From Negaprion brevirostris (Eukaryota): a stretch of DNA of 63,764 nucleotides. The first letter of the stretch is position 1; the number at the start of each line of letters is the position of its first letter. The notes below the pieces were generated by a model. It saw only the letters and a list, made by a program, of their open reading frames with translations, did not search any database and was not told the origin of the DNA. The DNA is taken from NCBI GenBank assembly GCA_030324005.1, contig JARDVH010000193.1, positions 43,881,328-43,945,091 on the forward strand. The letters are read 5' to 3'. The position numbers and the translations under genes are program-made. Below, piece after piece: positions 4,512-63,764 of the stretch.

Positions 4512-5204
4512 GTTAGTGATCAGATGAAAGGTCTTGGCTAACTTTATAATCTAATTATTCCTTTCTAACCCAGAAGAACTGAAACCAAACCTTTGCTCCT
4601 GCCAAGTTAGATAAATTGGATTTACCCGCCAGTCTTGTATATGTATAAATAGTATTGGGTCACAACATAAACTTTGAACTCCAGTGATTCTGCTTCTGAC
4701 AGTATCAGCATTCTTTAGAATGTTCCTACATATATGACCTTGTGATCTCCTCCCGAGATGTTTCCTCGAATGGAAATAATTTGATGAAAGCTGTTCGTTA
4801 ACCCTGAGGACTTCAGTGGGATGTTTGCAGGACTAAGATGGAACCCAGTCTCTCCGTGGCAGGATGGAGACTCTCTCAGTAAATTTTCATTACCCCAAAT
4901 ACTAAAAGAAGATTATTATGGGCAGTTTTTTCCCCTAATGGATTAATACATCAAGATTTCCTGTAGTTTTTATGCAATTAAACCTTGCATGATGTGCATC
5001 AGTTTCTCTGTTTGATTTATTTGGTGTCGAGATGCCGGCGTTGGACTGGGGTAAAGTGGGCTNNNNNNNNNNNNNNNNNNNNNNNNNNNNNNNNNNNNNN
5101 NNNNNNNNNNNNNNNNNNNNNNNNNNNNNNNNNNNNNNNNNNNNNNNNNNNNNNNNNNNNNNACCTTGCATGATGTGCATCAGTTTCTCTGTTTGATTTA
5201 TTTG

Positions 5205-5297
5205 GTGTAGAGATGCCGGCGTTGGACTGGGGTAAAGTGGGCTTATTATCAAATAAACTGGTTGGACTTTAACCTGGTGTTGTGAGACTTCTTACTG
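5205..5297. mobile_element. Penelope-like (family P1) inverted terminal-repeat fragment
   Basis: Minus-strand end gagatgccggcgttggactggggtaaa fused to plus-strand gtgg..aaataaac..gttggactttaacctggtgttgtgagacttcttactg. Same family at 22.7k, 24.0k, 26.0k, 59.4k and 62.1k. Confidence 0.8.
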
Positions 5298-22100: not shown

Positions 22101-25100
22101 TCTGGTTCCACCGGTGTGGCCAAGTCGACGTCTCCTCATTCATGGGGATCATGTCTACTCCCCGCTAGTGCACATCTTTGCCCGCAAGGTCATAAGGTGG
22201 GTGGGGCTGGATGATTGAGGACTGGGCTTGCTAAGCAGATGCAAAGTATTTCCATAATACAGTTCCATAAATTAGCCTACTTCCTGCCCATTTCCAGTGT
22301 GAGGTTGACCGCGTCGGAAATGCTGCGCTTGTAAAACGACGCCAGTTGTGAAAACCAGTGGCAATCACGCTTAAGTACTTTATGCCTGAAATTACCACAG
22401 CGTTACACCCAAAAAACAGGCACAAAGTGGTGATAAAATCACCCCCTTAGTCTCTGTTATGTTTCGGCTGTTATGGCATCATCAAGAGACTTCAGATTTT
22501 GCTAGGAACAAAGGTTTTACTGATGAGATAATTAGTAAAGGAGATTTATTCAGCACAATGGCTGCCCTGGGGCAGAGCCAGTTCTACATTCTTACAATGT
22601 AGTTCCAGAAGTCAAATGCTTGAGAGAGGACACTCTGTTCAGTGTAATATCTCTTGCTCAGTTCCTATTGGTCCCTCAAGTCAGGTGACTAACTTCCACT
22701 GTCCTGCCTTAAAATGATGTGGAGATGCCGTAATAATCACAAACAGCATATAAAGGCGCACACAGTTTACAGAATACTGATTAGAATGCGCGTCTTTATA
22801 ACTAATCAAGTCTTAAAGGTGCAGACAATGTGAGTGGAGGTAGCATTAAGCATAGGTTAAAGAGATGTGTATTGTCTCAAGACAGGACAGTAAGTGAGAT
22901 GTTGCAAGCCCAGGCAAGTCATGGGGGTTACAGATAGTGCGACATGAGCCCAAAATCCCGGCTGAGGCCGTCCTCATGTGTGCGGAACTTAGCATTCAGT
23001 CTCTGCTCAGCGACTCTGAGCAGATTCTGCTCCACAACATGACTAGTCAGCAATGTCCACATCCCACGAAAATTAATGTTATCCCCGTTCCCCGTGTAGA
23101 CACGTTACAATTCATTCTGCTTACTCCCTCTCTCTCTTGTGTTCGTTTCTCTTTCCCTCCATTTTGTTCTGTATCTTTAAGATGTTATACATTTCCATGT
23201 CCGCAGTTCCGACGAACAGTCCACCTCTGAAACTCAATCTCGCTTTATCCCTCAGTAGATGGCGCCTGTCCTGCTGAGGACCCCCAGCAATTCCTGCTCT
23301 TGTATCTTGTAATGTCAACAAAGAACTTGAAGAATATCGGAAAATAAACCATTGCTTAAATTTGCAAATATTCTAACCGCGTTTCCAAAACAAAAAAAAA
23401 CCTGCCTGGGACTGGACTGGAGTTATACTTCATTCTCTGTGAAGCCCAAATTATGTGGTAAGAAAATGTCCTAAAGTCCTCAGGCCCTTGACCCTTGGAA
23501 CAGACTGATTTGCAGGAAATGACAGTATAAACGATGCCTAATGAAGGTAAACAACAGACTTGATAGGGATTTCAACTCAGTGTTTAAAGAGGAAATATCT
23601 GGCCCAATTATTTCCACTACACTGGAACTCTCCCCGCCGTTTCTCTTCTCACTGAAAGTTGGTCGGAAGCTCGTTCTCTTTACTGTGGATATTAGAAAGC
23701 TGTAGTTCCCATATTTCGGTCACAGGGATACATTCAGTACTGGCTAAGCCTAAGAGAGTCAGGAGTCTGTGCCTCCTCTCAGCTTACGTCTGTAGGAGGA
23801 TATAGAACCATAGAATCCCCTCATTGCAGAAAGAGGCCATTCAGCCCATCGAACCTGCACCGACAACAATCCCATCCAGGCCTTAGCCCACTGACCNNNN
23901 NNNNNNNNNNNNNNNNNNNNNNNNNNNNNNNNNNNNNNNNNNNNNNNNNNNNNNNNNNNNNNNNNNNNNNNNNNNNNNNNNNNNNNNNNNNNNNNNTCTC
24001 CACTCACATTGTCTGCACCTTTAAGACTTGATTAGCTGTAAAGACTTGCATTCTAATCAGTATTCTGTAAACTAAGTGTGTCTTTATGTACTCTGTTTGT
24101 GATCAGAACTCCCATTCACATGACAAAGGGGCAAACCCCAAAAGCTAGTGGTGTTTATTACCAAATAAAACTGTTGGACTTTAACCTGGTGTTGTGAGAC
24201 TTCTTACTGTCTTAAAATGACAGATAGCACATGCACAATGGAGTCTTCCTGTCATTTGTGGGATCCATTAGCAGATCTTTGAGAAGAGGAAATGTCTTCC
24301 AGTCATAATCCTGAGTTTTTCTTAGTATTTTCCCTCTCCAAATCTCTGTTTTGTAAATCAACATTGGCCTTCCCCAACATTTCCACAGCAAAGGGGTCAC
24401 AAATGCCCCAAGTTCTTCAAGCCTGTCTTTCCAGCTGCAACTTCTGCTTTGTGGAACATTTAGTGCAGTATTGCTCTTGACGTGGTTTTACATATGGTCG
24501 GTAGCTCTTATAAATGTAAAAGCTGTTTCATTCACCGTGTAAACTGTTTCTACAGTGCTTTAAAATGTGCTACAGATGTGCTTTAAAACAAGTGTGTATA
24601 CAAACTTTGTGTATGTGCCATTTTAAAATAGCAGTCAACGATCATTTCCTGGGGACTAATGGCCTCCTCAGTGGCTGAGGAAGCTGTGTAAAAACCTGCA
24701 ATGATAAAGCTGTTTTGATGGTAATCTGCACAGTGCTTCTTTTCATGGTCCATGCTGCTTCTGAATATAAGTCAAAGTAGTAAAATCTGTGCATGGTAAA
24801 ATTATATTGTTTATATGCCAATTTACAAACAGTTGGTGCAATGTTTTGCTCCATAGCACTGTATTTACTGCTAGCAGGAAGTACTTAGAGGGTTTATGGC
24901 TCATTTACGCAATTGGCTACGACACTGATGTGTCCACCCTGAATTATTGAATATGCTGCCAAGTCGAGACCACACACCAGAAAAAAAAATTGATTTGTAT
25001 GAGGGCCACAACACACACTTGAAATCTTCTCCTCCCAAAAAATGCAGCTATGTGTACTTACAGGTGATTTATTCTTAATCCAAGATATTTTGTAATTATA

Positions 25101-28100
25101 GCATTATAGGTGGCATATATAGTAAAACCTTGCTTGTTTCCAGCAGCTCTAGAATCTGTTCAGTGAATCTGCTTCTTTTTGTTCTAACTTCAGGGACACA
25201 TTTGGTGCATCACTGTTTAAAATACATTGTGAGCAAATTCCAGAGACCAGACGTCCACTGGTCTTCCTAATTAACAACTGCACTGACTTTGTCTTTTATG
25301 CCTTGCTGAGTTTTTTGTATCAGAAACTTCATGGATAAACAAGGAACCAATCTCAATAAGGTGGTTTACTGGGTCATATTGTCTGTTTTTCAAAAAAAAT
25401 TGTTCCTTGCACTATTCAGTTATTTGAGTTGTAATTGGCCACTGAGCTGAGATATTGGGAAGTTGAGTGTGGTCAAATAAGTGAAACGTGTTTATCTTGA
25501 ACCTTGGCACGCTTAGCCCCTGGATGAAGTATGTTCAAGTGATATGTGTCAAGTGTGTATTGTTCCAGACTGATCGATACTGCTGCTGAGCCAGCTCATT
25601 AATTGTTTATATGTTAATTGCATATAATAAACATTCAGGTTTGACTCCTGTGGTCTTTTATCCAAGGGCCTTGGGCTCAGCTCTGTCTCAGATGCAGTTG
25701 GTGTCACATGATTTTCAGCACTTGTGGATGGCTGAGGGGTGCACAGGTTATTGCTAAGTTATATTTATGTGATTGAGTTGGGCTGAAAGCATAGTAATTA
25801 TAGACTTACTTGTGCTACAGAAGCACAACTGCTGATTTCAAACTGTCAATTCATTCCTGCCTTTTATTGCTTGTTACTTTAAGTTTAGTTTGGACACTCG
25901 TTATGAACCCAACCTGGAGGTGGAGAGAGGATGCCTCCATTTTGAAGTATCCTTTCCCTACCTACCTGCTATGGCATTCCCGATTCTATGATGTGGAGAT
26001 GCCGGCATTGGACTGGGGGTAAACACAGTAAGAAGTCTCACAACACCAGGCTGAAGTCCAACAGGTTTATTTGATAGCTCAAACCTTATCTTTTGGAGCA
26101 CTGCCCCTTAATCAGGGAAGTGGGANNNNNNNNNNNNNNNNNNNNNNNNNNNNNNNNNNNNNNNNNNNNNNNNNNNNNNNNNNNNNNNNNNNNNNNNNNN
26201 NNNNNNNNNNNNNNNNNNNNNNNNNNNGAAGGTCTCTGGCCCTCCACCTTCAAGCTCCAGCCCACCTTCCATATTACACAATGAGCCTGCCTTCTGGCCA
26301 TTAATTGGCTGTTCTGGGGAAAATCACATTGTTCTCCTCAGAGTGTGGGCTTTTAACATCCATTTGAGCCTGATAGTAAGGTTCAGAAGCCTGTAGGCAT
26401 AAACCTGCCTAAGATTTTACTTCATTACAAACCTTGAAAGTGATTTCTTTTAACCTCTCAAATCTCCCTTTTAAAGAAGGTTCTCTTGCCCTCTTCTAAA
26501 TTTCTTACATCATCTCATATCTATGGCTCCTTTTCCTTTTCCCTTAACTACTGGAAGCAGTTGGCTTTTATCTACCCATTCCCAACTTTATCTAATTTAA
26601 GAACTTCAGTTATAATGTCCTGTAATGTCTATTATCTAATGATTATTTTTCGTTTTTAGTATTTGTATTTACTCACAGGCAATGTGCAATCAGTGAATCT
26701 GTCTTGTATCTTTCTAAAGTGTTAATATCCTGGCTATGGGTGCAAACCCAATCTTGTATTAATGCAACCTCATTAATCTTTATATAAACTTATTATTAAT
26801 TCTTTTTTATATTCCATACTTTGAGATAAAGCCCAATTTTGCCTTATGGACCGGAAGCACTGTTTTTAATCTCCTTTGAATCTCCTGTCTCCATGAAGTC
26901 CTTTTGATTTTCCACAGCACCAATCCCATTTATCCAGTTTACTGCAAGTACTTTTTTATACCAAAAATGCACCATCTCACTTTTTTTTGGAAACTAAATT
27001 TAATCTACTAAAGCCAATCTGCACCGTTTTATCAATATGCCTAATCAATATAAACCAAACTTTTGAAGAATTAACAGAATGGTTTAGTTGCCATCGGAGT
27101 AAGAAATTTCACCAAAAACAACTTCCATCTAAATAGTGCCCCAAGTTCATGAAACGTAAAGGCAGGGATGTTCCCACTTTAAATGTCTTAGTCTCACTTG
27201 TATGTTCTCTGGCCACCTTCTTTATCCCCCTTCTTGACCACTGTCTGAGACTAAACCAAAGTCTTGGTGCCTTGTTTGACCTTGTGATTTGCACCACATA
27301 TTTGCTTTATCCTCAGGCCAGCTGCTTCCACTTCTCTTCATTTGTTGTTAAAAACTTCACCATGGCTTTCTAACCACTAGACTATATTCTGCTGTCCAGG
27401 TAAGCTTTCCATCTTCCATGCTTCATAAATGTAAGCTCATCCAAATTCTGCTGCTTGTAGGCTAACTCAAACCAAATTCCTTTTGCCCATCATTCTTGTA
27501 CTTGCTGACCTACCTTGGGTTCCAATTCAGCAGTGGCTCAACTTCAAAATTTTCAATCCTGTTTTCAAGTCCTTTCACAGCCTCACCCTTCCCTTTCTTT
27601 GTAACACTGAGTTCTTACAACTTTTAAGATACTAATAAATAAGATATAGGACACTGAAGAGTGTAGTAGAACAGAGGGGTATGGGAGTACAGATACATAA
27701 TTCCCTAAAAGTGGCGTCACAGGTAGATAGGGTCTAAAGAGTGCCTTTGGAACATTGGCCTTTATAAATCAATGTATTGAGTAGAAGAGTTGGAATGTTA
27801 TGGTGAGGTTGTATAAGACATTGGTGAGGCCAAATTTAGAGTATTGTGTGCAGTTTTGGTCNNNNNNNNNNNNNNNNNNNNNNNNNNNNNNNNNNNNNNN
27901 NNNNNNNNNNNNNNNNNNNNNNNNNNNNNNNNNNNNNNNNNNNNNNNNNNNNNNNNNNNNNNNNNNNNNNNNNNNNNNNNNNNNNNNNNNNNNNNNNNNN
28001 NNNNNNNNNNNNNNNNNNNNNNNNNNNNNNNNNNNNNNNNNNNNNNNNNNNNNNNNNNAGGACTCTGGTCCCAGCACGGTTCAGACCAACCCCATCCCAC

Positions 28101-53000: not shown

Positions 53001-56000
53001 TTTGTCTATGTATTAACACAGTGAACTAAACAGCACTTAAAGCAGCAATTGCAATATGCAGTGCTTCATCCATAAAGAGGAAGGGATTGCACAGGACATT
53101 TTTGGTCTTAGTAAGAACTGTTCTGGAAAGCTGTGAAGCATCAACAACATTTATCTGTTAATTTTGCAGGTAACGGAGCTGAAAAGCCTGGCAAATCACG
53201 TCATAGTTGGCAACGTCTCCTGTGAAACAAAAGATTTGTTTGCAGCCCTGCCTCAGTCTGTTGCTGTGGATATCAATGATCTGGGAACTATTAAACTCAG
53301 TCTAGAGGTCATTTGGAAGTAAGTCTTTCATAGTTTAAAAATCAGATGAGAATAGTCTTTTGTAGCATGTTCATGGCACGGAAAATGCTTTGTCCACAGC
53401 AAAACTTGTAAGAATATTAGATAATCAAAGGACTACTTTTATCTGGCTACAATGGACCCTTTCAATTGCACTCTGCTCCAAGCTCTGCTTTGATTTTTAC
53501 AAAAAGTGTGTCATTCAGAATTATTGCACTACTGCAGAGGACTCGTGTTAAGAGTTTAACTTGTTTTATGCAGTCTTCAATAGAATGATGCATATTTATC
53601 CGCAAGTCAACAAAACTCTTGCCAAACATGTAAAGAAAGGCTAAAAAAAAATCCGGTTGCTCTCCCCACACTGACAATGCACGGTGCACCCCTCCTCTGC
53701 AGTCATACAAGTAAAAAGCCTTGCCATACCACCCCTTCCCTTGGGAAATCGTGCAAAGTCGAGAAGACAGCAGTGATCAGTACCCCAACTCTTTCCTGCT
53801 AGCCCACCTATCTTTTAATGATGTGAGAATTTCCACCCTTGGGAAATCTTCCTGCTCCACTTTGTGGATTTGCTGCACAATTTTCATTCTATGCACTGGC
53901 CACTCATTCCAGAAGCTGACAATGCTTGTGGAAAAAAAGTAACACCCTGGCATCCATAAGTATTGTGGCTAGTCCCCTACCTTGCTTATCAATCTCTAGT
54001 AACTTAGTCCACATTGACAGAACTAAATTGCTTCATAATTTTAAGTATCTCTACCTTGCCTCTGTTGAAGCCTACATTTTTCCAAGGATAAAAAGCCCCA
54101 TCTCTTCAAATCTGTCCTGCTAATTTGCGGCCCTTAAACTAGGGGCTAAAAGTCCTTAACCAGTTGGGTGGCCCTCCTTCAAACCATTTCCATAATGTTG
54201 TTATCCCCATAATTCAAAGGACCCAAAACCATATACTATAAGGTGGCTACACTAGGTACGAATAGGACTTCTAGTTTGATAGTTAATTGTCCTACCTATG
54301 CATTCTAATACCACATACACTTTCACTACAGTACTGTCTATCTAGCTGCGTAATGAGCAGCTCCAATAAGAATAGGACTAAAAGTCCCAACTGTAAACCT
54401 TTCAACTCACTGAGATCAAGATTATCTTCAGTACTTTGTAATCAAATCCCAATTCAGGATTAAAAAGAAAAACAGGAATTGCTAGAAGTATTCAGTAAGA
54501 AAAGACAGCATCCATGGAGAAAAAGAGTTGATGTTCTAGTTGATGACCTTTCATCAGACTAGAACTATAACTCTCCACAGCCCTGTCTGACCTGCCGTCT
54601 ACAGCATTTTCTGTTTTATTTAAGGTTTCCAGCACTTGCACTACTTTGTTTTGGCCCAGTTAATAATTGCTCTTCAATACTTTGGGACTTTACTCAAGGC
54701 CAATCCATGACTTTGGCTTTACTCAAGCTTTTCTTAGTGCTTTTCTTGGGTACTAGATTTAATTGCTCAGGGATTTTAGAAGCAGAAGAGGAGCTGAACA
54801 TTATTGATTATTTTTGCTTTGTTCTAAAGTGCATTAAGGAAAGGGACTTAAATCAACTGACCAAAAAGACTTTATGCCAGCAGGCTTAGGTGGTGCATGA
54901 GGGAAATGGATCAGGGAAATTTGAAATATGGAGCTATTCAAATGTTACAAGTACATAAACATTAAGATTATCAGAGACATTTTTTAAACCCCAATGCCTG
55001 CAATATGAACAATTTCATTTAAGTGTAATATTCTTCTCTCCTCGTGCCTTGTCAGGATACAATTGTGTTGTTGCCATCGCCACCCCTGATTTTAAGCCAA
55101 TTGTTATTCCCCTCTTGTTTCTGGTTTATATCAGTTCACTGCGTACTAGATTTGGGATTGAACCTAGGACTTTTCCATTCATTTATTAACTAGATAAACT
55201 TGACATGTGTTCTTGTTAGCAACTGTATGTTGTAAATTTAAACTTGGTGAACATCAGTCAGCTAATGAAGTAGTTCACTTAAGAATGGCATGGCTGTGGG
55301 TTTGGGGATTTGTGAACTCCACTCACTAAAACTGTTAATTGTGAAGTGCAAGGGAAAAGTGCAAGGTTTTATTGCCTTGCTTTCCTGACATGGATTATCT
55401 CTGCTTTTATTTTTTTAAGTCATTATGTGCTTCTTTTATAGTTAACACTTGATTAGCCCCATAACATTTAGATTAGATCTTGAATGAGAGTTGGTTGTTA
55501 AAGTGACTTTAAGATTTGGGAATTGTGGCCTGAGGACCCTCTGATATGAATCGAATAAGAACTATAGATATTAGCTTCTTTCCGTGTCTGAGAGAATTTA
55601 AGCAATACTCAAGCGGATAAAGATTTTTGTGTCCTTTTATAAAGGCCTCCAGTACTCTGTCCAAACATCGTGTTTCAGTCTATATTGATGCTCATTGTTA
55701 TGAACATCGTAACAATGCGACAATGTTGCATTGTTAAACAAAAAGCTTTGAAGAAAATGCTTGACTGCACACCACCCTCCCCTGCACACCTCCATTTGCA
55801 AGTAACTTATATCCCTCACTTGAATAGTTCAGACCCATTTATTTATTATTGCCCTTCCTGTCATTTGTTTGTAATATTTCTTTTAGTGCTTTTATATACA
55901 AGGCTCATTAGTTACAATCTGCATCACTGGGGGCCGTTCGCNNNNNNNNNNNNNNNNNNNNNNNNNNNNNNNNNNNNNNNNNNNNNNNNNNNNNNNNNNN

Positions 56001-58592
56001 NNNNNNNNNNNNNNNNNNNNNNNNNNNNNNNNNNNNNNNNNNNNNNNNNNNNNNNNNNNNNNNNNNNNNNNNNNNNNNNNNNNNNNNNNNNNNNNNNNNN
56101 NNNNNNNNNNNNNNNNNNNNNNNNNNNNNNNNNNNNNGGTGAGACCTGGGGGAGGGGCGAGAGTGCGGTTAGAGTGTTGGGCAGAGACTGAGGGGCTGGC
56201 AGGGAGTAATGGAAGGAGTCCATGCAAGAGTCGAACCTTGTGGAAATGGGGATGCCTAATACTGATGGAGCTGCACCTCCTTCCTGCCTGAGGCCTAAAT
56301 GGGTTTAATTCTCAGACCATCTGCGCCCAACCCCGACTTCTTCCAACAACTTAAATGGGGGTCGGGGGGGTGCAGTGTGGTTGGGGATATCAAATTGCTT
56401 TAGGATAGGTGGGAACCTGGTGGGCAGGCCCTCTGAGAAATGTTCTGGTATCCTCCACCACCACTTACAAACCCACAAAATCAGGGGAAAGTAAAATTCT
56501 GCCCCTGTGTAAGCTCCCCACATGCTTTCCTCACTGTGGCTTTGAAATTTCAATTTTTGATGTGGAAATTAGATTCTAGAATTAATAATGTTGGCCAGAG
56601 GTGGGAATGTGGAATTAGTTTACATGATCAGCCATGATGGTAGCAAAACAAGCTTGAGGAGCTGAATCGCTTGCTTATTTCCGCGTTCCTGTGGTAAGTT
56701 GTGTAAATCTTGCAGTTAGTTAGATCCCAGTGTGGCGAAGTTTGTTGCGGAAAAAAATCAAAAACATAATCATCCTTTAATCAGCACAAGTTGAATTCTT
56801 TTCCCCCAGATGTGACAGAGCATCCAGTGCTTGTATTTGACCTAGTTTTGGTCAATGGCCAATCCTAGGGAATATGCTGAACCACTTCATTTGTGCCAGT
56901 TGTTAGCTGCAGAGCAATGGCCACTTTCAGAAGACTTTCCAACTCTGAGTGCATTGAATTCAATGTTCGACAATCAATTCCAAATCTCTACACACACTTT
57001 TGTATCCTATTTGAACTGAAGCACTCTATTAGTCAAAGATTACTTGAGAAATTAAAGTACTGAAAAAATGACTTTTGTGAACTTACAGAATAATTTAAAA
57101 TATTCAGCATATCTCTGCTTAACTTTGTTATCAACTTTGCTGTGATTGGCATCAGCTCTTTGTGAGGATGTGACTAACTTTTCCTTTTGTTAATGGGTGT
57201 GTTGGGATTGGTTGATATGTTTATGTCCATGTATAATTCCTGCCTTCCCCCTTGAGTTACTTTTTTTAAAGAGTCTGATCAAGCTTGACAAACCAATTCT
57301 GGACAAAGGTCTGCTAAAACATGCTCAGAAATTTACACATCTCACTGTGAATACAAGAAATATTCCATAATCACTATGCTACTTACACTACTGAATCCAT
57401 GATTTTGCAAGCAGATATTGCCCCTTCAAAAGGCTCAGGTTTAAATGTCGCATTCAGTCTTTCACTTTCTTTCAATGTACGAATTTCTCCATGCCTTTAA
57501 GATGTTTTCCCTTGTGTAACTGAGCCATTCTTCTAGGGAAACTGCAAGTCAGTCCGTGATCTGTGTCATATTTGGGATGAACTTCATTAAAGCAGCAGTT
57601 AGCGTGTTCTAGTTGGCCCTGGATTAGAGAGAACGAGGTGAATGGGGAGAGGGTGCGGAATTGACAGTCCATGCTGGTGAGGGTTTGTGTGTGTGTCTTC
57701 AGTACAGGAAGTAAGAAAACAAAAGGAAACTCTTCCTTTTTATTCCATGCTCAGTAAAATATTGAAAAAAGGATCTTATTGTCATAAATAAGAGAGCCTT
57801 AGGTCTTTGTGGCACCTTTCACAGTTTCAGAATGTCTCAAAACACTTCATAACCATAAAGTATAATCACTGTTTTGATGTAGGGGAATCATGGCAATCAG
57901 TTGCTCAGTAAGAAACTTCAGTGGAGTGAATGACTAACTAAGCTGTTACTGATATGGTTTGAGGAACACATACTGGTCAGGATACTGGCAGTGCTCCCTG
58001 ATTCTTCAGATGTCCTGAGACAGCAAATGATTTGGCAAATCATCTGGAAGGTAGTACCTGGGACAACAGAACTCTCCTTCAGCATTGCATGAAGCATTAT
58101 GTCCAGCATAATGTACTCAACTGTAGTGAAGCTTCAACCCACAACTGTCTGACTCCCATGGCTAGGTACTACATGTACTGACTCTAACCCTCTCTTCCTT
58201 TCTCCATTAATGCTGTCACCCAGGATTATATTTCTGCATCTTCCAGTGGAATTTAATGCTACCCAGCATTAATTACTGGTAGAAGGAAGCAACAGTTTGT
58301 TTATTATTAGACACCTGCACTAATCCCAGAGCAGCTTACCATGTTCTGAATCCCAAGGTTAGAACGTGTGGAAAATATCTTAGCAAGGAAGTCATTCTAC
58401 TATGTCTTAAATGCCAGCAGTGTCTGTGTATCGTGTCTTATTTACCTTGTGTTCTCTTTTAGTCCATTTGACAAAGATGATCAAACATCTGCTGCAAGTA
58501 CTGTCAACAAAGTGCCCACTGTGAACAAGCGATTCTCCACCTACAACCAAAGTCCACCAGATACCCCATCCCTGCGGGAACAGGCCTTTTAT
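10080..58592 (+). CDS. RIPOR1: RIPOR1/FAM65A (RHO family interacting cell polarization regulator 1), spliced CDS, 3'-incomplete: join(10080-10180,12917-13069,16070-16148,16832-16855,17648-17701,35391-35540,38249-38312,48848-48891,51301-51426,53170-53318,58463-58592)
   Basis: 11 exons with AG/GT boundaries and compatible phases give 1074 nt (358 codons) with no stop. Peptides [71 protein letters not shown] and [21 protein letters not shown] match RIPOR1 as recalled. The last is RIPOR1-specific rather than RIPOR2/3. Confidence 0.93.
10650..11045 (-). mobile_element. Deu-domain SINE (SacSINE1/AmnSINE1-like)
   Basis: Antisense Deu core (ccacctgagagggca..ctgcactccttcagaactg) and tail (ttgtatttatatagcaccttt). 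Paralogues at 34.5k, 36.65k, 57.8k and 61.6k. Confidence 0.7.
11941..12117 (+). mobile_element. HE1-like V-SINE, 5'-truncated, CR1-type tail
   Basis: Matches the 3' half of the 13213-13526 copy (taggtg.attggccat.ctaaattg...gggattcta). Confidence 0.85.
12917..13069 (+). CDS. RIPOR1: RIPOR1 exon 2: [50 protein letters not shown]
   Basis: tttttgtcttccag acceptor, GTAAGG donor, 153 nt, phase 2-2. PQPERLD.VY.ALK.GL motif. Confidence 0.95.
13213..13526 (+). mobile_element. HE1-like tRNA-derived V-SINE, full length
   Basis: A box tggcacagtagttagc, B box gggtttaattcc, V core ctgtgtggagt..ttcctcccacag, tail tgtagggattcta. Confidence 0.9.
16070..16148 (+). CDS. RIPOR1: RIPOR1 exon 3: [26 protein letters not shown]
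   Basis: ttcttacag acceptor, GTAAGA donor, 79 nt. Confidence 0.95.
16832..16855 (+). CDS. RIPOR1: RIPOR1 exon 4 (24-nt microexon): GFLYDLDK
   Basis: ttggttttcag acceptor, AAG|GTAAGA donor. Peptide matches RIPOR1 GFLYDLDK. Confidence 0.95.
17648..17701 (+). CDS. RIPOR1: RIPOR1 exon 5: [18 protein letters not shown]
   Basis: Long pyrimidine tract then ctgatag acceptor, AAG|GTAAGA donor, 54 nt. Confidence 0.95.
18808..19230 (+). mobile_element. CR1 LINE 3' end
   Basis: Encodes [30 protein letters not shown] (CR1 ORF2 C-terminus), followed by the CR1 3' UTR. Confidence 0.85.
19497..19621. mobile_element. Short MITE-like element
   Basis: Imperfect TIRs ggctggaattttac / ataaaatccccac; related ends at about 40400 and 56500. 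Confidence 0.4.
20525..20834 (-). mobile_element. HE1-like V-SINE, full length
   Basis: Reverse complement of the 13213 copy; (catagaat) tail repeats and a tRNA head at 20770-20834. Confidence 0.9.
21555..22446. mobile_element. GC-rich non-autonomous DNA-transposon-like element
   Basis: About 0.9-kb GC/CpG-rich island bounded by imperfect TIRs ggatgctattttgcca / tgataaaatcacccc; no recognisable ORF. Confidence 0.5.
22714..23020 (-). mobile_element. Penelope-like element (P1) 3' end with internal deletion
   Basis: Minus strand reads [29 protein letters not shown] (Penelope endonuclease C-terminus), then UTR shared with the 24.0k and 59.5k copies. Confidence 0.85.
23120..23310 (+). mobile_element. 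Penelope-like (P2) terminal repeat, decayed
   Basis: cagttccgacgaa...tgaaac...gatggcgcctgtcctgctgagga..ccagcaattcctg parallels the right arm of 36300-36400. Confidence 0.55.
23801..23896 (-). mobile_element. HE1-like SINE tail cut by a gap
   Basis: tatagaaccatagaatcccc..ggccattcagcccatcga..gacaacaatcccatccaggcc. Confidence 0.8.
23996..24210 (+). mobile_element. Penelope-like (P1) terminal repeat with decayed hammerhead motif
   Basis: Reverse complement of 22740-22840 and 59380-59590; ends aataaaactgttggactttaacctggtgttgtgagacttcttactgt. Confidence 0.85.
25988..26125 (-). mobile_element. Penelope-like (P1) terminal repeat cut by a gap
   Basis: atgatgtggagatgccggcattggactggg..cacagtaagaagtctcacaacaccagg. 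Confidence 0.85.
27632..28378 (+). mobile_element. CR1 LINE 3' part (gap inside)
   Basis: [17 protein letters not shown] and [33 protein letters not shown], typical CR1 ORF2 C-terminal motifs. Confidence 0.92.
28460..30974 (-). mobile_element. Decayed, internally deleted Ty3/Gypsy LTR retrotransposon
   Basis: Diverged direct repeats at about 28492-28592 and 30829-30974 (ctcaaaggaatgatatcag..ccacagtaca..ttctccaaa). PBS at 30815-30828. Gag knuckle [14 protein letters not shown], protease remnant (T)SASCNII, RNase [26 protein letters not shown]. Confidence 0.88.
30815..30828 (-). promoter_or_regulatory. Primer binding site complementary to tRNA-Leu(CAG) 3' end
   Basis: Minus strand TGGTGTCAGGAGTG immediately after the LTR-terminal CA. 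Plus strand CACTCCTGACACCA equals the recalled vertebrate tRNA-Leu-CAG 3' end including CCA. Confidence 0.8.
31220..31550 (+). mobile_element. V-SINE with HE1-like head and alternative (type 2) tail
   Basis: Same head and core as 13213, but tail is caggcgcc..ttttcactgtaactt..aataaataaacttt(aaacttt)n. Confidence 0.85.
31993..32181 (-). mobile_element. LINE 3' UTR (Rex1/Babar-like as recalled) with (TCAAA)n tail
   Basis: atttgatttgatttattattgtca..catacagtgaaaagtattgtttcttgc; directly abuts a SINE head. Confidence 0.6.
32182..32285 (-). mobile_element. HE1-like SINE head/core fragment
   Basis: aaacccatgcagacacggggagaacatgcagactc..gtgacccaag..gtgaggcag. Confidence 0.8.
32899..33202 (-). mobile_element. 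V-SINE with type 2 tail, full length
   Basis: Reverse complement of the 31220 copy. Confidence 0.88.
33475..33551 (-). mobile_element. Isolated tRNA-like SINE head
   Basis: gtgacccaagccgggaatcgaaccgggatccctggtgctgtgag..gtgctaaccgctgtgccac; A and B boxes on the minus strand. Confidence 0.8.
33897..34126 (+). mobile_element. SINE head (33897-34014) fused to CR1 ORF2 fragment (34015-34126)
   Basis: SINE core followed by [23 protein letters not shown], the CR1 RT W...WQM.FN..KC.VMH.G motif. Confidence 0.88.
34227..34359 (-). mobile_element. Rex1/Babar-like LINE RT fragment
   Basis: Minus strand [38 protein letters not shown]. Confidence 0.8.
35391..35540 (+). CDS. RIPOR1: RIPOR1 exon 6 (HR1-like Rho-binding region): [50 protein letters not shown]
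   Basis: tttgttgcag acceptor, GAG|GTAAAG donor, 150 nt; lies within ORF 35367-35567. Confidence 0.96.
36165..36407. mobile_element. Palindromic element made of two inverted Penelope (P2) terminal repeats
   Basis: Centre AGAACTGGAA-G-TTCCAGTTCT (36290-36310); arms are diverged reverse complements. Confidence 0.75.
36645..37430 (-). mobile_element. Deu-domain SINE split by a nested + strand MER131-like SINE (36826-37185)
   Basis: Deu tail and core at 36645-36825 resume at 37186 (gtgggatc..ccacctgagagggc..cagcactccctc). The insert has a gggttcaaatccc B box and an A-tail. Confidence 0.75.
38249..38312 (+). CDS. RIPOR1: RIPOR1 exon 7: [21 protein letters not shown](G)
   Basis: tttcttttacccag acceptor, AAG|GTGAGT donor, 64 nt. 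Confidence 0.95.
39115..39309 (+). mobile_element. HE1-like SINE, 5'-truncated
   Basis: taggtggatttgccatgcta...gcactgtagggattctat. Confidence 0.85.
39668..39977 (+). mobile_element. HE1-like V-SINE, full length
   Basis: tggtggcacagtggttagcactactgcctcacagc..gtagggattct. Confidence 0.9.
41610..41759. repeat. Degenerate G-rich minisatellite (about 25-31 bp unit tgtgggcagcaggaggccccaagt)
   Basis: About six recurrences of tgtggg/tgagtgg..caggag(g); caggaggccccaagt occurs twice, 31 bp apart. Confidence 0.6.
43075..43314 (+). mobile_element. CR1 LINE 3' end
   Basis: [11 protein letters not shown]...[11 protein letters not shown], then a CR1-type tail. Confidence 0.8.
43931..43998. repeat. (TG)34 microsatellite
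   Basis: Uninterrupted TG run. Confidence 0.98.
45607..46660 (-). mobile_element. Decayed CR1 LINE
   Basis: catagaaccata tail; antisense of CVQFW-like motif (cagaattggacacaat). Confidence 0.75.
46675..47400 (+). mobile_element. Penelope-like element (family P3) 3' end with terminal repeat, interrupted by a CR1 insertion (about 46780-46963)
   Basis: Remnants YDSAIEQRL / [18 protein letters not shown] / [11 protein letters not shown] resemble a GIY-YIG C-terminus (SAI..HL...F.I...LC.QK). Followed by UTR with CTGATGA..GAAA. Confidence 0.72.
47322..47357 (+). ncRNA. Minimal type I hammerhead ribozyme-like motif (core boxes intact, helices mutated)
   Basis: TTGTC CTGATGA GTGCAAGCT GAAA ATCTT T AACAA. 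Confidence 0.65.
47770..48430 (+). mobile_element. Decayed L2-clade LINE fragment
   Basis: gctgatgacactcacctc (ADDT.L; YADD-like) followed by [11 protein letters not shown], similar to 3221-3885. Confidence 0.55.
48848..48891 (+). CDS. RIPOR1: RIPOR1 exon 8: [15 protein letters not shown]
   Basis: tctttgtttcag acceptor, GAG|GTGAGG donor, 44 nt. Confidence 0.95.
49375..50870 (-). mobile_element. Decayed CR1 LINE
   Basis: Antisense CR1 ORF2 hallmarks (cccagactgtatgcagtactc; aaaagccttactaaaatccacataaac = VYVDFSKAF). Confidence 0.8.
51301..51426 (+). CDS. RIPOR1: RIPOR1 exon 9: [42 protein letters not shown]
   Basis: ttggcag acceptor, AAG|GTAAGG donor, 126 nt; overlaps ORF 51307-51498. Confidence 0.96.
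53170..53318 (+). CDS. RIPOR1: RIPOR1 exon 10: [49 protein letters not shown]
   Basis: ttttgcag acceptor, GTAAGT donor, 149 nt. Confidence 0.96.
53695..54430 (-). mobile_element. Decayed CR1-clade LINE
   Basis: Antisense remnants (cattccagaagctgacaatgc..gtggaaaaa; acccaaaaccatatactata). Confidence 0.55.
54460..54655. mobile_element. Palindromic Penelope (P2) terminal-repeat element
   Basis: Arms aaaacagga.tgct..cagcatccatggaga / tctccacag..ctgacctgc..cagcattttctgtttt; gatgacctttcatcag near the centre. Confidence 0.7.
57790..58180 (-). mobile_element. Deu-domain SINE, decayed
   Basis: gcacctttcac..tctcaaaacacttca..tggtttgagga..actctccttcagcattgcatgaag. Confidence 0.55.
58463..58592 (+). CDS. 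RIPOR1: RIPOR1 exon 11: [43 protein letters not shown]
   Basis: ttctcttttag acceptor, TAT|GTAAGT donor, 130 nt; within ORF 58368-58679. Confidence 0.96.
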
Positions 58593-59379
58593 GTAAGTCT
58601 CTCTACAGGTGTATTCTGTTATGGATATCCTGAATGTAAGGATGCTTTGCACAATCGCCCAGATTGGTATATTCCTTGAAATGTGTGAAGTGTTTTCCTT
58701 GTGATCCAAACTGCAGTCTTGCTTAGTACAACCCAGTCGTTCTGTTGTTTTAATTTTACAATCTGAAGACAAATGCCTTGGTTCAGATTTGACTCTGGGC
58801 AGCTTAGTATTAATATGGACCTGCTGTGGAGTAGGGTCAACAGCTATGACAGAGTTTGAAAAGGACTGTGTGCGCACTTATGGAAGAAAAGGGAAAGAGT
58901 CATCCTCATGTATACTCCGCACAGTAAAATCATTGATTATCCTTCATAAACATGTCTACGATTTCAATGCACCTCAGGAACAGAGAACCTTTCACTCTGG
59001 CTGTATGGCTTGCACATTCTTAGCTCCAAGTTGTCATAGTGACGGAGGAACTAGAGAGGGGAGGAAAGGGCTGGCTGGCTAACAAAGGAAAAGCAGTATC
59101 AGAGAAGAGTGACACGAGAGAGAGAGAGCTATATTCTGACTGAAGCTGTTAATAAATTACAACAGTCGGATCTACTTGTGCAGCCAGAGACACTAAGGTG
59201 TGTAATTCAGGAGGTAGCTAACGTGTTTACTGACTGCTGCCGCAAATCATAATTCTCTATTTTTAACCAGTTATTTAAGTTGTAAGGTTGCCATTTTATT
59301 TCTTGGCCTCGTGGTATTAGAGATGTACTCTCACCAGATAATGCTAGAAAATGAATCTCTGTTTAAAGTCTTCAATAAA

Positions 59380-59715
59380 AAGTCTGACAACACCAGGTTT
59401 TAGTCCAACCGATTTATTTGACAGTAAACTCACAAGCTTTTAAGGTTTCCCTCTTCGTCAGGCGAATGGAGAGTTCTGGCCTCAGACAGAGCATATAACA
59501 GCACCGACAGTTTACAGATTACTGATTAGAATGCAAGTCTTTACAACTAACCTGTTATTCAAGTCTTAAAGATGCTGATGATGTGAGTGGAAAGAGCATT
59601 GTGCATAGGTTAAAGAGATGTGTATTGTCTCCAGACAGTACAGTAAGTGAGGTTTTGCAAAGACAGGCAAGTCATGGGGGCTACAGATAGTGTGTCATGA
59701 ACCTAAGATCCCGGT
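59380..59715 (-). mobile_element. Penelope-like (P1) 3' end plus terminal repeat
   Basis: Collinear with 22740-22960 and reverse complement of 23996-24210; ORF end RDLRFMTHYL*. Confidence 0.85.
59428..59467 (-). ncRNA. Minimal type I hammerhead ribozyme-like motif (G12>A lesion)
   Basis: Minus strand ATTCGC CTGACGA A GAGG GAAA CCTT AAAA GCTT GTGAGT. Confidence 0.7.
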
Positions 59716-60004
59716 AGTCTTATACACCCAGCCAGCCTATGTGTGTGATTTATTCGTTTAATTCCTGTTTGAAAGTTACAATTGAACATAGAACATAGAA
59801 TTGAATCTGCTTTTACTGCCCCTTCAGGCAATGCATTCCAGATCATAAGAACTTATTCCCCTTATGTTGCCTTTTAAGATGAATAAGAAAATCTAATGGG
59901 TAGGTGGAGATAAATATTTCCTCAGGTGAGATAAAACAGAAAGTACCTTGATATCAGAGTGAGACTATTCTGGGGTGATCACGCCCAGGGTTAAGACAGG
60001 TTAT

Positions 60005-60264
60005 AAAGTTTTTTTTATTCGTCACAAGTTATTTTATTCGTTACATTAACACTGCAAAGGAATTCTCTTAGTTGCCACACTTTGGTGCCTGTTCGGGTCA
60101 ATGTACCTAACCAGCATGTGGGAGGAAACTGGAGCACCCGGAGGAAACCCACACAGACACAGGGAGAACATGCAAACTCCACACGGAAATGATCCAAGCT
60201 GGGAATCGAACCAGGGTCCCTGGTGCTGTGAAGCAGTAGTCCTAACCACTGAGCTACCGTGCCA
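60005..60264 (-). mobile_element. V-SINE with type 2 tail, inserted in a + strand CR1 3' end (about 59880-60410)
   Basis: aaagttttttttattcgtcacaag tail and tRNA head at 60195-60264. CR1 tail (aatggcggagcag..cctatatcttatggtcttg) resumes afterwards. Confidence 0.85.
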
Positions 60265-61063
60265 CTGTTCTTGGGTGGTAAGTGGCTCAAAGGTTACGGG
60301 GGAAAAGTAGGAGAATGGTGTTGAGAAACTTATCAGCCACGATCAAATGGCGGAGCAGGTCCAATGGGCCGAATGCCCAATTCTGTTCCTATATCTTATG
60401 GTCTTGTGGTCTAGCAACTCTTCATAGAGGAAGCCTGGGACCCTCCTAACAGGCTGTTGGGAGGTCAATAGGAAAAGGCAAAATCATGATCGATTTTTGT
60501 TTGGAAAGTGTTGTTAGAGTGGACCTCTTCTAACAAACCACAGGAAACTAAGAGACAGATTATAATAATTTATTCATGATCCAAGCATGGAGGGCACTAC
60601 CCCAGAGAAACCTCTGAAGTAGCACTCTCCTCTAATACAGCTCTCTCAGTTCTAATTGCACTCAATCCTCTAAGTCACAGATACGCACTTTTTAATCAGA
60701 ACACAGAACATTGTTTTTAAAATTCCAATCTTGTCCACATAGGTTTATTATTAATCCTTCATCCAGAGCATGGCTGTTATCTCCTCCTAGCCAGAGACTA
60801 TTTCCTCTGATGTAAACAATCAAAGCCTTGCTGGAGAGTTCTTGCTGGTTTCAGGTCCATGAGGGTGCGTAAGTTTTACCTGGGGTATAAGCTGTTAACG
60901 ATCATGTGCTCTTTACTCTTAGCTCCAACCTTCTTTCAACTGAACCAATTAATTTATCCTAACAGTGCAATAAAGAATATGGAGCCAAGCACGATAAATG
61001 GAGCTGAAGTTTAGATCTGCTATGATCTACCTGAATGGTGTAACAGACTGAACTAGCTGAATA

Positions 61064-61360
61064 ATCATGGATTCCCTACCAAGCAGGATGAGGCCAGTCA
61101 GCCCATCAAGCCTGCACCGACAACAAACCCACCTAGCCCCTATCCCCGTAATCCCATAAATTTACCCTGCTAATCCCCTAAGGGGCAATTTAGCTTGGCC
61201 AGTCCATCTAATCTGCCATCTTTGGAATGTGGGAGGAAACCCACGTGGACATGGGGAGAACGTGCAAACTCCGCACAGTCTGTGACCTGAGGCCAGAATT
61301 GAACCCAGGTCCCTGGTGATGTGAGGCAGCAGTACTAACCACTGTGCCACCGTGCCGCCC
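61064..61360 (-). mobile_element. HE1-like V-SINE, full length
   Basis: Reverse complement of the 13213 and 39668 copies. Confidence 0.9.
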
Positions 61361-61599
61361 ATTGCACCCCTGCTCCTGTCGTTCCTGCCCTCCAACTCTT
61401 CCAGTGCTCAGTTTGCTGCCTTAGACCAGGTGGTCTAAGCAGAGAGAGAACGAGAATCAGATCTCCTTTGTGTGGCTCAGTTCAGCAGTGCGTTTAGCAA
61501 ATGAGTCACTCTGGGCGTTTAAATTTTACCCAGTACTCTGTTATGTATAGTCCCAAATTGTTACACTCCAATGACATCACCAAGAGGCTAAACACAGCC

Positions 61600-61835
61600 C
61601 TTGCCCATCATTGGAATCGTCTTGGTGTCAGTTGAATACCAAACCCAGGTTGACATTCCAGTGCAACATTAAAGGAGGGTTTCATTGTTACAGGTGCTGC
61701 CCTTGTGGCTGAACACCTCTCAGGGCGATGTCACAAATCCCAAGTTGCTATTGAAAGAAGAACAGTGGAATTCTCCACCTGGTTAATGTTTATTTCTCAA
61801 CAACATTGCCAGAAATCAGATCCATTAGTCAACGC
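61600..61835 (+). mobile_element. Deu-domain SINE core, truncated by CR1
   Basis: gacattccagtgca..ggaggg..caggtgctgccc..ctctcagg..aatccca..gctattgaaagaagaacag. Confidence 0.6.
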
Positions 61836-61837
61836 TG

Positions 61838-62036
61838 TTAGAACATAGAACAGTACAACACAGTACAGGCCCTTCGGCCCTCGATGTTGTGCTGAGCTAT
61901 GTCTAAACAAAAGATCAAGCTATCCCACTCCCTATCATTCTGGTGTGCTGCATGTGCCACTCCAATAACCGCTTGAAAGTTCCTAAAGTGTCCGACTCCA
62001 CTATCACAGCAGGCAGTGCATTCCACACCCCAACCA
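61838..62036 (-). mobile_element. CR1 LINE 3' end
   Basis: tagaacatagaacagtacaacacagtacaggcccttcggccc tail; antisense of VWNALPA. Confidence 0.85.
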
Positions 62037-62136
62037 NNNNNNNNNNNNNNNNNNNNNNNNNNNNNNNNNNNNNNNNNNNNNNNNNNNNNNNNNNNNNNNN
62101 NNNNNNNNNNNNNNNNNNNNNNNNNNNNNNNNNNNN

Positions 62137-62210
62137 GTTGGACTAAAACCTGGTGTTGTCAGACTTTTTACTGTGTTTACCCCAGTCCAACGCCGGCACA
62201 TCCACATCAT
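62137..62210 (+). mobile_element. Penelope-like (P1) terminal repeat end
   Basis: gttggactaaaacctggtgttgt..accccagtccaacgccggcacatccacatcat. Confidence 0.85.
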
Positions 62211-63532
62211 AAAGTCTTCAATATCAGAGAACTGAAATTGAACTTTTTGGTTCCACTTTTCAGTTTCTGAATGTTAGAAGTTAAGCAGCTAAAGAACTAT
62301 TTATTATACACAAGTTGATGCTTTGGATGGACAGGAATGTTACTTCACATACTATTATCTGAAGGTACAAAGCGACTAAATAGCTGTGGGCTAATGGCTG
62401 TGGCACAGGTGTTACTGGCCTCTGTATGCATGGTTATTCCTATTAGAAACAGGCTAACCTACCTTCTGATCTTCCTGTCCCATTTGTTTTGTCTCTGAGC
62501 ATCATTTGAGAATGTTCAGCTTATTGATTTGCTTTAATTTCAGTTTGTGAAGCCATTGTTTAGTTTTGGCCCCTCCAAGGAACTGTCTGCATCCTTTCTT
62601 CACTTTCTGAAATGGCTTTAATACTTCCACTTTCTGAAAATGGCTCACGGTCTGGTAGCTTCTGTGATGATTAGAATGGTGTCCCCACCCTGGCTATTAG
62701 CCCATCACTGTTTAGTTACTTTGTACCTTCCAGAAAGTAGTATGTGAAGAAACATTCTTGTCCATCAATAGCATCAACTTGTGCATAATAAACAGTTCTT
62801 TAGCTGCCTAATTTCTAACCTTCAGAAATTGAAAAATGCAGCCTGAAATCTGAGACTTCATTCTGAGATTGTGCAGCCTTAAACATAGTTTTTTTTCACG
62901 TTTGTGGCAATAAATTTCTTGACTTTTGTTGGAAGTATAGTCGGCATGTATATGCAGGAAAAGGGATCTCTTCAGCCTTATAATTAAATTTTGATTCATT
63001 CATGGGATGTGGCAAAGAGCATTTATTACTCTTTCTTAGCTGCTCTTGAGAAAGTAGTACTGAGCCGTCTTTGTGTCAATTGAGTGGCTTGTTAGGCAAC
63101 ATCAGAGGGCAATTACAGTCAATCACATTGCTATGGGCTCAGAGTCACATTTGGACCAGACCAGGTAAGGTCAGCAGATTTCCTCCTTTGCAGGGTGTTA
63201 GGAAGAAGGCTGCGCCTGTTGACTAACAGTGGTGGGGGGGGAGGACATGTCCCACACTGGCTGTCCTTGGAAACTGCAATGGAGGTGATCAGTTACAATT
63301 ACACAAAACTATATCTTGTTACTTTTTCATTCAAGATTTTGTCTGAGTACAAAATCTAGACTATTAACTCCTCCTTGAATCCCCTTTGGATCACTTAGCA
63401 GGTCATTGCATCATCTGTGGAGAAAGATGCAGTGAATATTTCATCTGGTTTGCTTTGTTCTATGTTGTAGTGAGATCTGTCTGACTACAAGGCCCCCAAC
63501 CTTACCCTTTTAACATCCAGGAGGTGGAACCT

Positions 63533-63764
63533 ACTAAGAACGTAAGAACCAGGAGCAGGAGTAAGCCATCTGGTCCCTCGAGGCTGCTCCGCCATTCTAT
63601 AAAATCATGGCTGATCTTTTTGTGGACTCAGCTCCATTTACCCACCCGCTCACCTTAATTTCTTTACTGTTCAAAAATTTATCTATCCTTGCCTTAAAAA
63701 CATGCAGTGAATTAGCCTCAACTGCTTCACTGGGCAGGGAATTCCACAGATTCACAACCCTTTG
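63533..63764 (-). mobile_element. CR1 LINE 3' end, runs off the window
   Basis: taagaacgtaagaaccaggagcaggagtaagccat tail; antisense of RVVNLWNSLP. Confidence 0.88.

Follow-up and report, generated by a model that had tools for sequence, protein, structure and literature searches.

A hammerhead motif in an intron of RIPOR1, as assembled

The window analysed here, a stretch of 63,764 nucleotides from the shark Negaprion brevirostris (assembly GCA_030324005.1, contig JARDVH010000193.1, forward-strand positions 43,881,328 to 43,945,091), carries part of the gene RIPOR1. Six of the genome's 16 matches to PF15903 (PL48) are exons on the plus strand of the window. The peptide encoded by exon 58463-58592 matches, at 100% identity, a shark protein carrying the name RIPOR1; among the 120 matches listed for it the named ones are nearly all RIPOR1/FAM65A. 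One contig of run X1 matches this exon exactly, and a run guessed to be RNA contains pieces of a Penelope-like element (PLE) family together with the RIPOR1 exon. The next exon begins ~2 kb past the end of the window. As assembled, a hammerhead motif lies antisense in this 7.2-kb intron, 785 nt from the RIPOR1 donor site, in the terminal repeat (pLTR) of a truncated PLE (Table 1). A long, broken Neptune-type ORF remnant is located 16-20 kb past the window end (L100, window-equivalent ~79,400-83,500), likely in a later RIPOR1 intron.

Table 1. Coordinates of features at the RIPOR1 locus (window numbering)
Feature	Position	Strand	Remarks
RIPOR1 exon 5' of the intron	58463..58592	plus	last PL48-domain exon
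Target-site duplication, left copy	59364..59377	plus	14 bp
5'-truncated PLE stub	59378..59715	minus	338 bp; end of GIY-YIG frame and pLTR, tail-less 3' end
Minimal type I hammerhead motif	59428..59467	minus	direct sequence reading
Helix I	59467-59462 with 59433-59428	minus	6 bp
Core box C3-A9	59461-59455	minus	CUGACGA
Extra A after A9	59454	minus
Helix II	59453-59450 with 59445-59442	minus	4 bp; loop GAAA
Core AAAA in place of GAAA	A12 at 59441, then A13, A14	minus	family has G at 12
Double lesion at the C11.1-G12 CpG	59441..59442	minus	C11.1>U (59442), G12>A (59441)
AGCU palindrome	59435..59438	minus	predicted intermolecular helix III of a dimer
Predicted cleavage site	between 59434 and 59433	minus	after CUU, U17 at 59434; inferred from hammerhead numbering
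Last ten codons and stop of PLE ORF	59681..59713	minus	RDLRFMTHYL*
Non-PLE DNA	59716..62036	plus	2,321 nt; unique stretches, old SINE and LINE pieces
Assembly gap	62037..62136		100 N; would hold a plus-arm hammerhead if the arm is long enough
Inverted partner arm	62137..62209	plus	pLTR end and ~35-nt tail
Target-site duplication, right copy	62210..62223	plus	14 bp

The minus-strand letters from 59467 to 59428 are exactly those given in the original prediction. In isolation this 40-mer forms helices I and II (-8.5 kcal/mol, z -1.56), an energy that by itself is not significant, since 12 of 200 shuffles are equally good. Within 334-343 nt of context, the probability of helix I is ~0.06 in the window copy versus ~0.12 in an intact sibling (L020), and that of helix II is 0.5 versus 0.94. 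A descriptor of the minimal hammerhead allowing G or A at position 12, composed after the motif was seen, has this motif as its single match in the window and finds 0 matches in 150 Markov-resampled windows. Searched up to E 10, Rfam gave no match to a hammerhead across window positions 54000-63764, and none was found in 8 loci carrying sibling copies. When two monomers were cofolded the dimer helix III was not the minimum-energy fold, such folds being outside the program's model.

Other PLE-derived pieces lie elsewhere in the window. A second hammerhead remnant at 24106-24155 (plus strand), sense to RIPOR1, carries three core lesions (C3, G8 and G12 are all A), and roughly 1 kb separates its arm from an EN/pLTR piece on the minus strand (22737-22961) that it faces. 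At 26022-26125 (minus strand) an older-subfamily pLTR end with its tail and a degraded hammerhead adjoins an N gap. A PLE arm at 5237-5297 (plus strand) begins at hammerhead position 1.1, with an inverted tail ahead of it at ~5205-5236; segments 4982-5062 and 5163-5243, on either side of an N gap, are repeats of each other and resemble a duplicate made in assembly.

The parent Penelope-like element

The stub represents a Penelope-like 3' end with a GIY-YIG tail and pLTR, and the terminal-repeat origin proposed in the original prediction is thereby borne out. The 5' end at 59715 was considered as a fixed end shared by the family and rejected: it is only the truncation point of the window copy, and longer copies continue upstream into the GIY-YIG endonuclease, a CX4CXXC linker and then a reverse transcriptase (RT) frame. 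The linker reads CHSNLCKTC between RT and endonuclease in three copies (L087, L083, L090), and the upstream walk passes through RT motifs, a DKG motif and a GLNF motif. By translation, a C-terminal GIY-YIG domain with CCHH follows the RT. RVT_1 was matched with E 2.4e-6, under the Pfam cut-off, and the endonuclease pieces had no Pfam match. No intact ORF was present among the copies fetched.

The coding strand of the 5'-complete copies (L118, L111, L129) carries the hammerhead, ~60 nt, the 35-nt tail and the ORF ATG in that order, so that the hammerhead lies ~100 nt ahead of the ORF start. Copies terminate either before or after the 35-nt tail. Such a pair of 3' ends is typical of PLEs and has been explained by two RT start sites (PMC11167929). 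From motifs read by eye, the element is probably a PLE of the Neptune type. The linker and motif definitions in PMC8557442 point to Neptune or Nematis, and vertebrates are reported to carry Neptune and Poseidon (bioRxiv 10.64898/2026.07.22.740005).

Conservation and covariation across the family

A genome search returned 3,952 first-look candidates, of which 40 were scored, at 93-95% identity. Strict 30-nt intact-core patterns, with CAY demanded ahead of the core, covered the two closest subfamilies but neither the window copy nor the subfamilies with longer loops, so all pattern counts are lower bounds. Under the strict pattern at least 890 genome copies have an intact C11.1-G12 (control 0), and the corresponding minimum counts are 302 for U11.1-G12, 381 for A12 and 248 for A8. 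G12 is thus found in 1,192 of 1,573 pattern-matched copies, and the GAAA core that the original prediction expected of a family consensus is present. In the first 100 strict copies listed, the second pair of helix II is G-C in 55, A-U in 40, G-U in 3 and A-C in 2 by hand count.

There were 118 anchored copies, of which 102 were parsed and 16 were not. Removal of 7 mis-parsed copies or inversion junctions and of 19 pattern-selected rows left 76. These display five helix II types and a loop II of 4-9 nt. The GNRA cap and 6-nt palindrome AAGCUU of the original prediction both exist in the window copy, but the loop is GAAA in just 24 of the 76 and only AGCU is conserved. An extra A stands between positions 9 and 10.1 in 75/76 copies. 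AGCU is near-fixed (A15.1 76/76, G 76/76, C 74/76, U 75/76), although the parser capped core mismatches and permitted one in AGCU, which inflates core conservation. Position 17 is U in 52 copies, A in 18, C in 5 and G in 1, hence H in 75/76.

Covariation was assessed in a MAFFT alignment of 47 copies, hand-picked to span the subfamilies. In this set 91.5% of helix cells are paired and 42 cells have changed on both sides, a tally of sequences rather than events, the independent events being a handful of subfamily changes. None of 500 shuffles reaches that level of pairing, and controls with slid helices are 24-53% paired. Two other statistics did not beat the shuffles, namely pairs with change on both sides (241/500) and further pair types (354/500). 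Changes on both sides affect three of the four pairs of helix II and two of the six pairs of helix I; helix I covaries weakly and one of its pairs is broken in 11/47 copies. Unprompted, RNAalifold recovered helix II together with the four inner pairs of helix I. The core and AGCU are retained while helix II alters in compensating pairs in at least five subfamilies, as anticipated when helix covariation was first put forward as a test.

Two features of individual lineages were also observed. In a sub-lineage of four copies (L010, L033, L142, L042) helix I pair 2.2-1.2 has changed from A-U to G-C, and the window copy has G-U there. One inverted insertion (L014) has a different helix II variant in each arm, which hints at two template RNAs or at recombination between subfamilies.

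Decay of the window copy

The family CG at positions 11.1-12 reads UA in the window copy. The G12>A change named in the original prediction as the only core lesion is present at 59441, but the adjacent C11.1>U at 59442 had been missed and the damage to the closing pair understated. The G10.1-C11.1 pair is G-C in 46/76 family copies and G-U, through CpG decay, in 27/76; it is G-U in the window copy. Having lost G12, the window copy is a decayed member of the minimal hammerhead class. The double change is rare, occurring in 0 of the first 100 pattern-matched copies listed and in 1/50 of an aligned set, and G12>A is found in 381/1,573 pattern-matched copies, a frequency at the level expected of ordinary CpG decay. 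CpG cells depart from the column majority in 76/408 cases versus 477/10,447 elsewhere, a fourfold faster divergence. Over 343 nt the window copy has 25 differences from the column majority of the family.

Both core CpGs decay almost symmetrically. U7 occurs in 28 of the first 100 strict copies listed (hand count), which corresponds to ~249 copies versus 248 with A8, and U11.1 in 302 versus 381 with A12; such near-symmetry indicates ordinary decay after insertion. Selection on spreading copies might have shown itself as a surplus of the tolerated CpG change relative to the lethal one; no such surplus is seen in these counts. The A12 copies are instead slightly more numerous than the U11.1 copies (binomial p 0.003), and so the lethal change is not purged among inserted copies. 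The symmetry of the decay shows an absence of selection on inserted copies.

Changing G12, the general base of the hammerhead, to A slows the minimal hammerhead >500-fold and the full-length one about a million-fold (PMC2553840). From these kinetics the window copy would cut at least 500-fold slower, in line with the earlier view that it is probably inactive. It also has no same-strand partner and lies on the strand opposite to the RIPOR1 pre-mRNA. We predict that the window hammerhead is dead and has no role for the host gene. Co-option to regulate RIPOR1, in the manner of the conserved intronic hammerheads of amniotes, is extremely improbable: the assembled proximity to the donor site and the intronic hammerheads known in RECK and other genes (PMC6155905) would suit such a role, but the motif is on the wrong strand, has lost its general base, shows only ordinary divergence and occupies an insertion site that appears to be empty in two related organisms.

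Structure of the insertion

The 14-bp duplication encloses the stub, the non-PLE DNA, the gap and the inverted, tailed PLE end, and the plus and minus arms are identical over 32/32 shared bases. In 6 other inverted pairs (20 rows in all) duplications of 7-12 bp occupy the corresponding two places, and most inverted pairs contain a 100-N gap (15/20 rows). The bases at 59716-59721, adjoining the stub, are a repeat of a portion of the target site. A 6-bp duplication around the stub alone (59367-59372 and 59716-59721) is nevertheless disfavoured, as the related organisms show no contig joining 59372 to 59722. The 14-bp duplication is preferred for its agreement with family practice in the 6 other pairs. 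The rebuilt empty site aligns with the second arm of a right-hand inverted repeat for 17 nt beyond the duplication, which is weak support. That repeat (62212-62361 / 62731-62880, 79-86%) is unique to the locus, with no other copies found in the genome, and its left arm is split by the PLE insertion. Short non-PLE DNA also lies between inverted arms at L014:1077-1311 and L152:1809-1860, each next to an N gap.

In run X19, which is letter-identical to the window, the inner DNA lies in one contig at depth 5.3, versus 7.2 for the flank. Runs X20 and X24 derive from related organisms with flanks 1-2% apart. Their left-flank contigs depart from the window exactly at 59377 and extend 959 and 961 nt past the divergence; these extensions, whose letters were unseen, would fit an empty insertion site. 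Both runs nevertheless contain the junction of the stub 5' end with the inner DNA.

We lean slightly towards an assembly chimera, in which RIPOR1 holds a short inverted PLE insertion whose arm became connected, by way of the repeat, to a different copy and the 2.3-kb flank of that copy from elsewhere. This is the simplest account and likelier than capture of the inner DNA by the element. It accommodates a duplication that frames both arms, inner DNA that has one copy in the assembly (over the 651 nt tested) and flank-like depth in X19, the presence of the stub-to-inner junction in organisms whose left flanks leave the window at 59377, exact matches of up to 61 nt between the region and other PLE copies, and the frequency of 100-N gaps in inverted pairs. 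Against it, a search for the leftover donor end of the 2.3-kb block, a weak test, yielded only one unrelated match, a mis-join does not account for the six-base repeat of the target site, and rotifers provide a precedent for unrelated DNA captured between pLTRs within a target-site duplication (PMC3846280). If the assembly is right, a PLE moved 2.3 kb of unrelated DNA into the RIPOR1 intron as one insertion and the source copy was lost, which we regard as unlikely. Among the papers listed in a literature search, none concerned host-DNA capture by a vertebrate PLE by title or abstract, the reports found being for rotifers. A mis-join bears on the location of the hammerhead and not on the identity of the motif: the hammerhead may then belong to either place, and its position in RIPOR1 is uncertain.

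Proposed self-cleavage and alternative roles

The motif is very probably a mutated, dead copy of a minimal hammerhead from the terminal repeat of an abundant Neptune-type PLE. Judged from its sequence, the parental family likely self-cleaved after CUH, as originally suggested. Source elements would be transcribed from the upstream pLTR, and the hammerhead may pair with a second copy through AGCU or receive help from the element's protein. Cutting after CUH would fall ~60 nt ahead of the first 3' end. Selection on the fold would have operated in the source elements, and inserted copies would then decay neutrally at the two core CpGs. Dimer cleavage is weak in vitro, according to PMC4209133 and the review PMC6765202, and in the Poseidon element of the anole cleavage was dispensable for insertion (PMC11167929).

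The fold might instead serve the PLE RNA mainly in protein binding or translation, with cutting that is rare or late and unneeded for insertion, a possibility that we entertain tentatively. The hammerhead of the anole Poseidon element cut only when protein was present, catalytic mutants left insertion unaffected, and reads ending at the cut position were absent (PMC11167929). Of the shark copies examined, 103/126 retain the core ahead of the cut site, in a sample biased towards such copies, so that most would have been copied from RNA uncut there. The excess of A12 over U11.1, with the lethal change unpurged, points the same way. However, all catalytic positions are kept despite differing loop II and helix II, as are the additional base at 9.1 and the avoidance of G at 17 (75/76), and the retention of catalytic features across subfamilies fits selection on chemistry. 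One of the 13 copies beginning in or after the core, that at 5237 in the window, starts exactly at the predicted cut.

The stub is very unlikely to be, instead of a truncated PLE, a unit of a non-autonomous retrozyme, in which hammerhead repeats in tandem spread as circular RNA. A chondrichthyan retrozyme family averaging 363 bp (bioRxiv 10.64898/2026.07.22.740005) is close in size to the 338-bp stub. The 5' ends of the copies are, however, scattered and continue into the endonuclease frame, the copy ends are the two PLE 3' ends and not the cut site, and the locus has a single stub with no head-to-tail unit.

Relation to known elements

PLE minimal hammerheads were published in 2014 (Cervera and De la Pena; PMC4209133) from fish, coelacanth, frog and reptiles, and the four marks listed for them recur in the shark family, the G10.1-C11.1 pair as G-C in 46/76 copies. 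Shared features are type I topology without helix III, an extra base between 9 and 10.1, a palindromic 15.2-16.2, location in the pLTR and the occurrence of many sequence families per genome, mostly as single truncated copies. In the shark family helix II has 4 bp and helix I at most 6, versus 7-8 and 4-5 in schistosomes. Sharks are not named in the part of that paper available, and the window copy, unlike the published class, has lost G12 and C11.1.

The protein resembles that of Neptune EN+ PLEs as described in PMC8557442: a GIY-YIG at the C-terminus that has two Cys in its core and His residues further on, a CX2-5CXXC linker (CHSNLCKTC), and GLNF and DKG motifs, along with pLTRs, an inverted truncated arm and a single-end tail. 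Nematis has the linker too. With the Poseidon element PAc of Anolis (PMC11167929) the shark element shares a pLTR hammerhead and two 3' ends ~35 nt apart. In contrast, the PAc ORF starts inside the hammerhead whereas ~100 nt separate the cut site from the shark ORF, which starts at the tail end, and PAc has no linker zinc finger. In Adineta vaga unrelated DNA likewise lies between pLTRs within one target-site duplication. For that rotifer both the source copies and an allele lacking the insertion were observed (PMC3846280), whereas the shark source copy was not found and an assembly gap lies inside.

Hammerhead repeats have been reported from one chondrichthyan in bioRxiv 10.64898/2026.07.22.740005, whose supplements may list this family; among the papers listed in literature searches, none was on shark PLE ribozymes. 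The window hammerhead is one decayed copy of a published, abundant class and by itself matters little. A genuine framed block would mean that PLEs rearrange the host DNA of a vertebrate, and a mis-join would be a warning that short-read assemblies of sharks are corrupted by inverted PLE insertions. With their very small helix II and their spread over several covarying subfamilies, the intact copies, which number in the hundreds, are natural constructs for studying the role of the hammerhead in PLEs.
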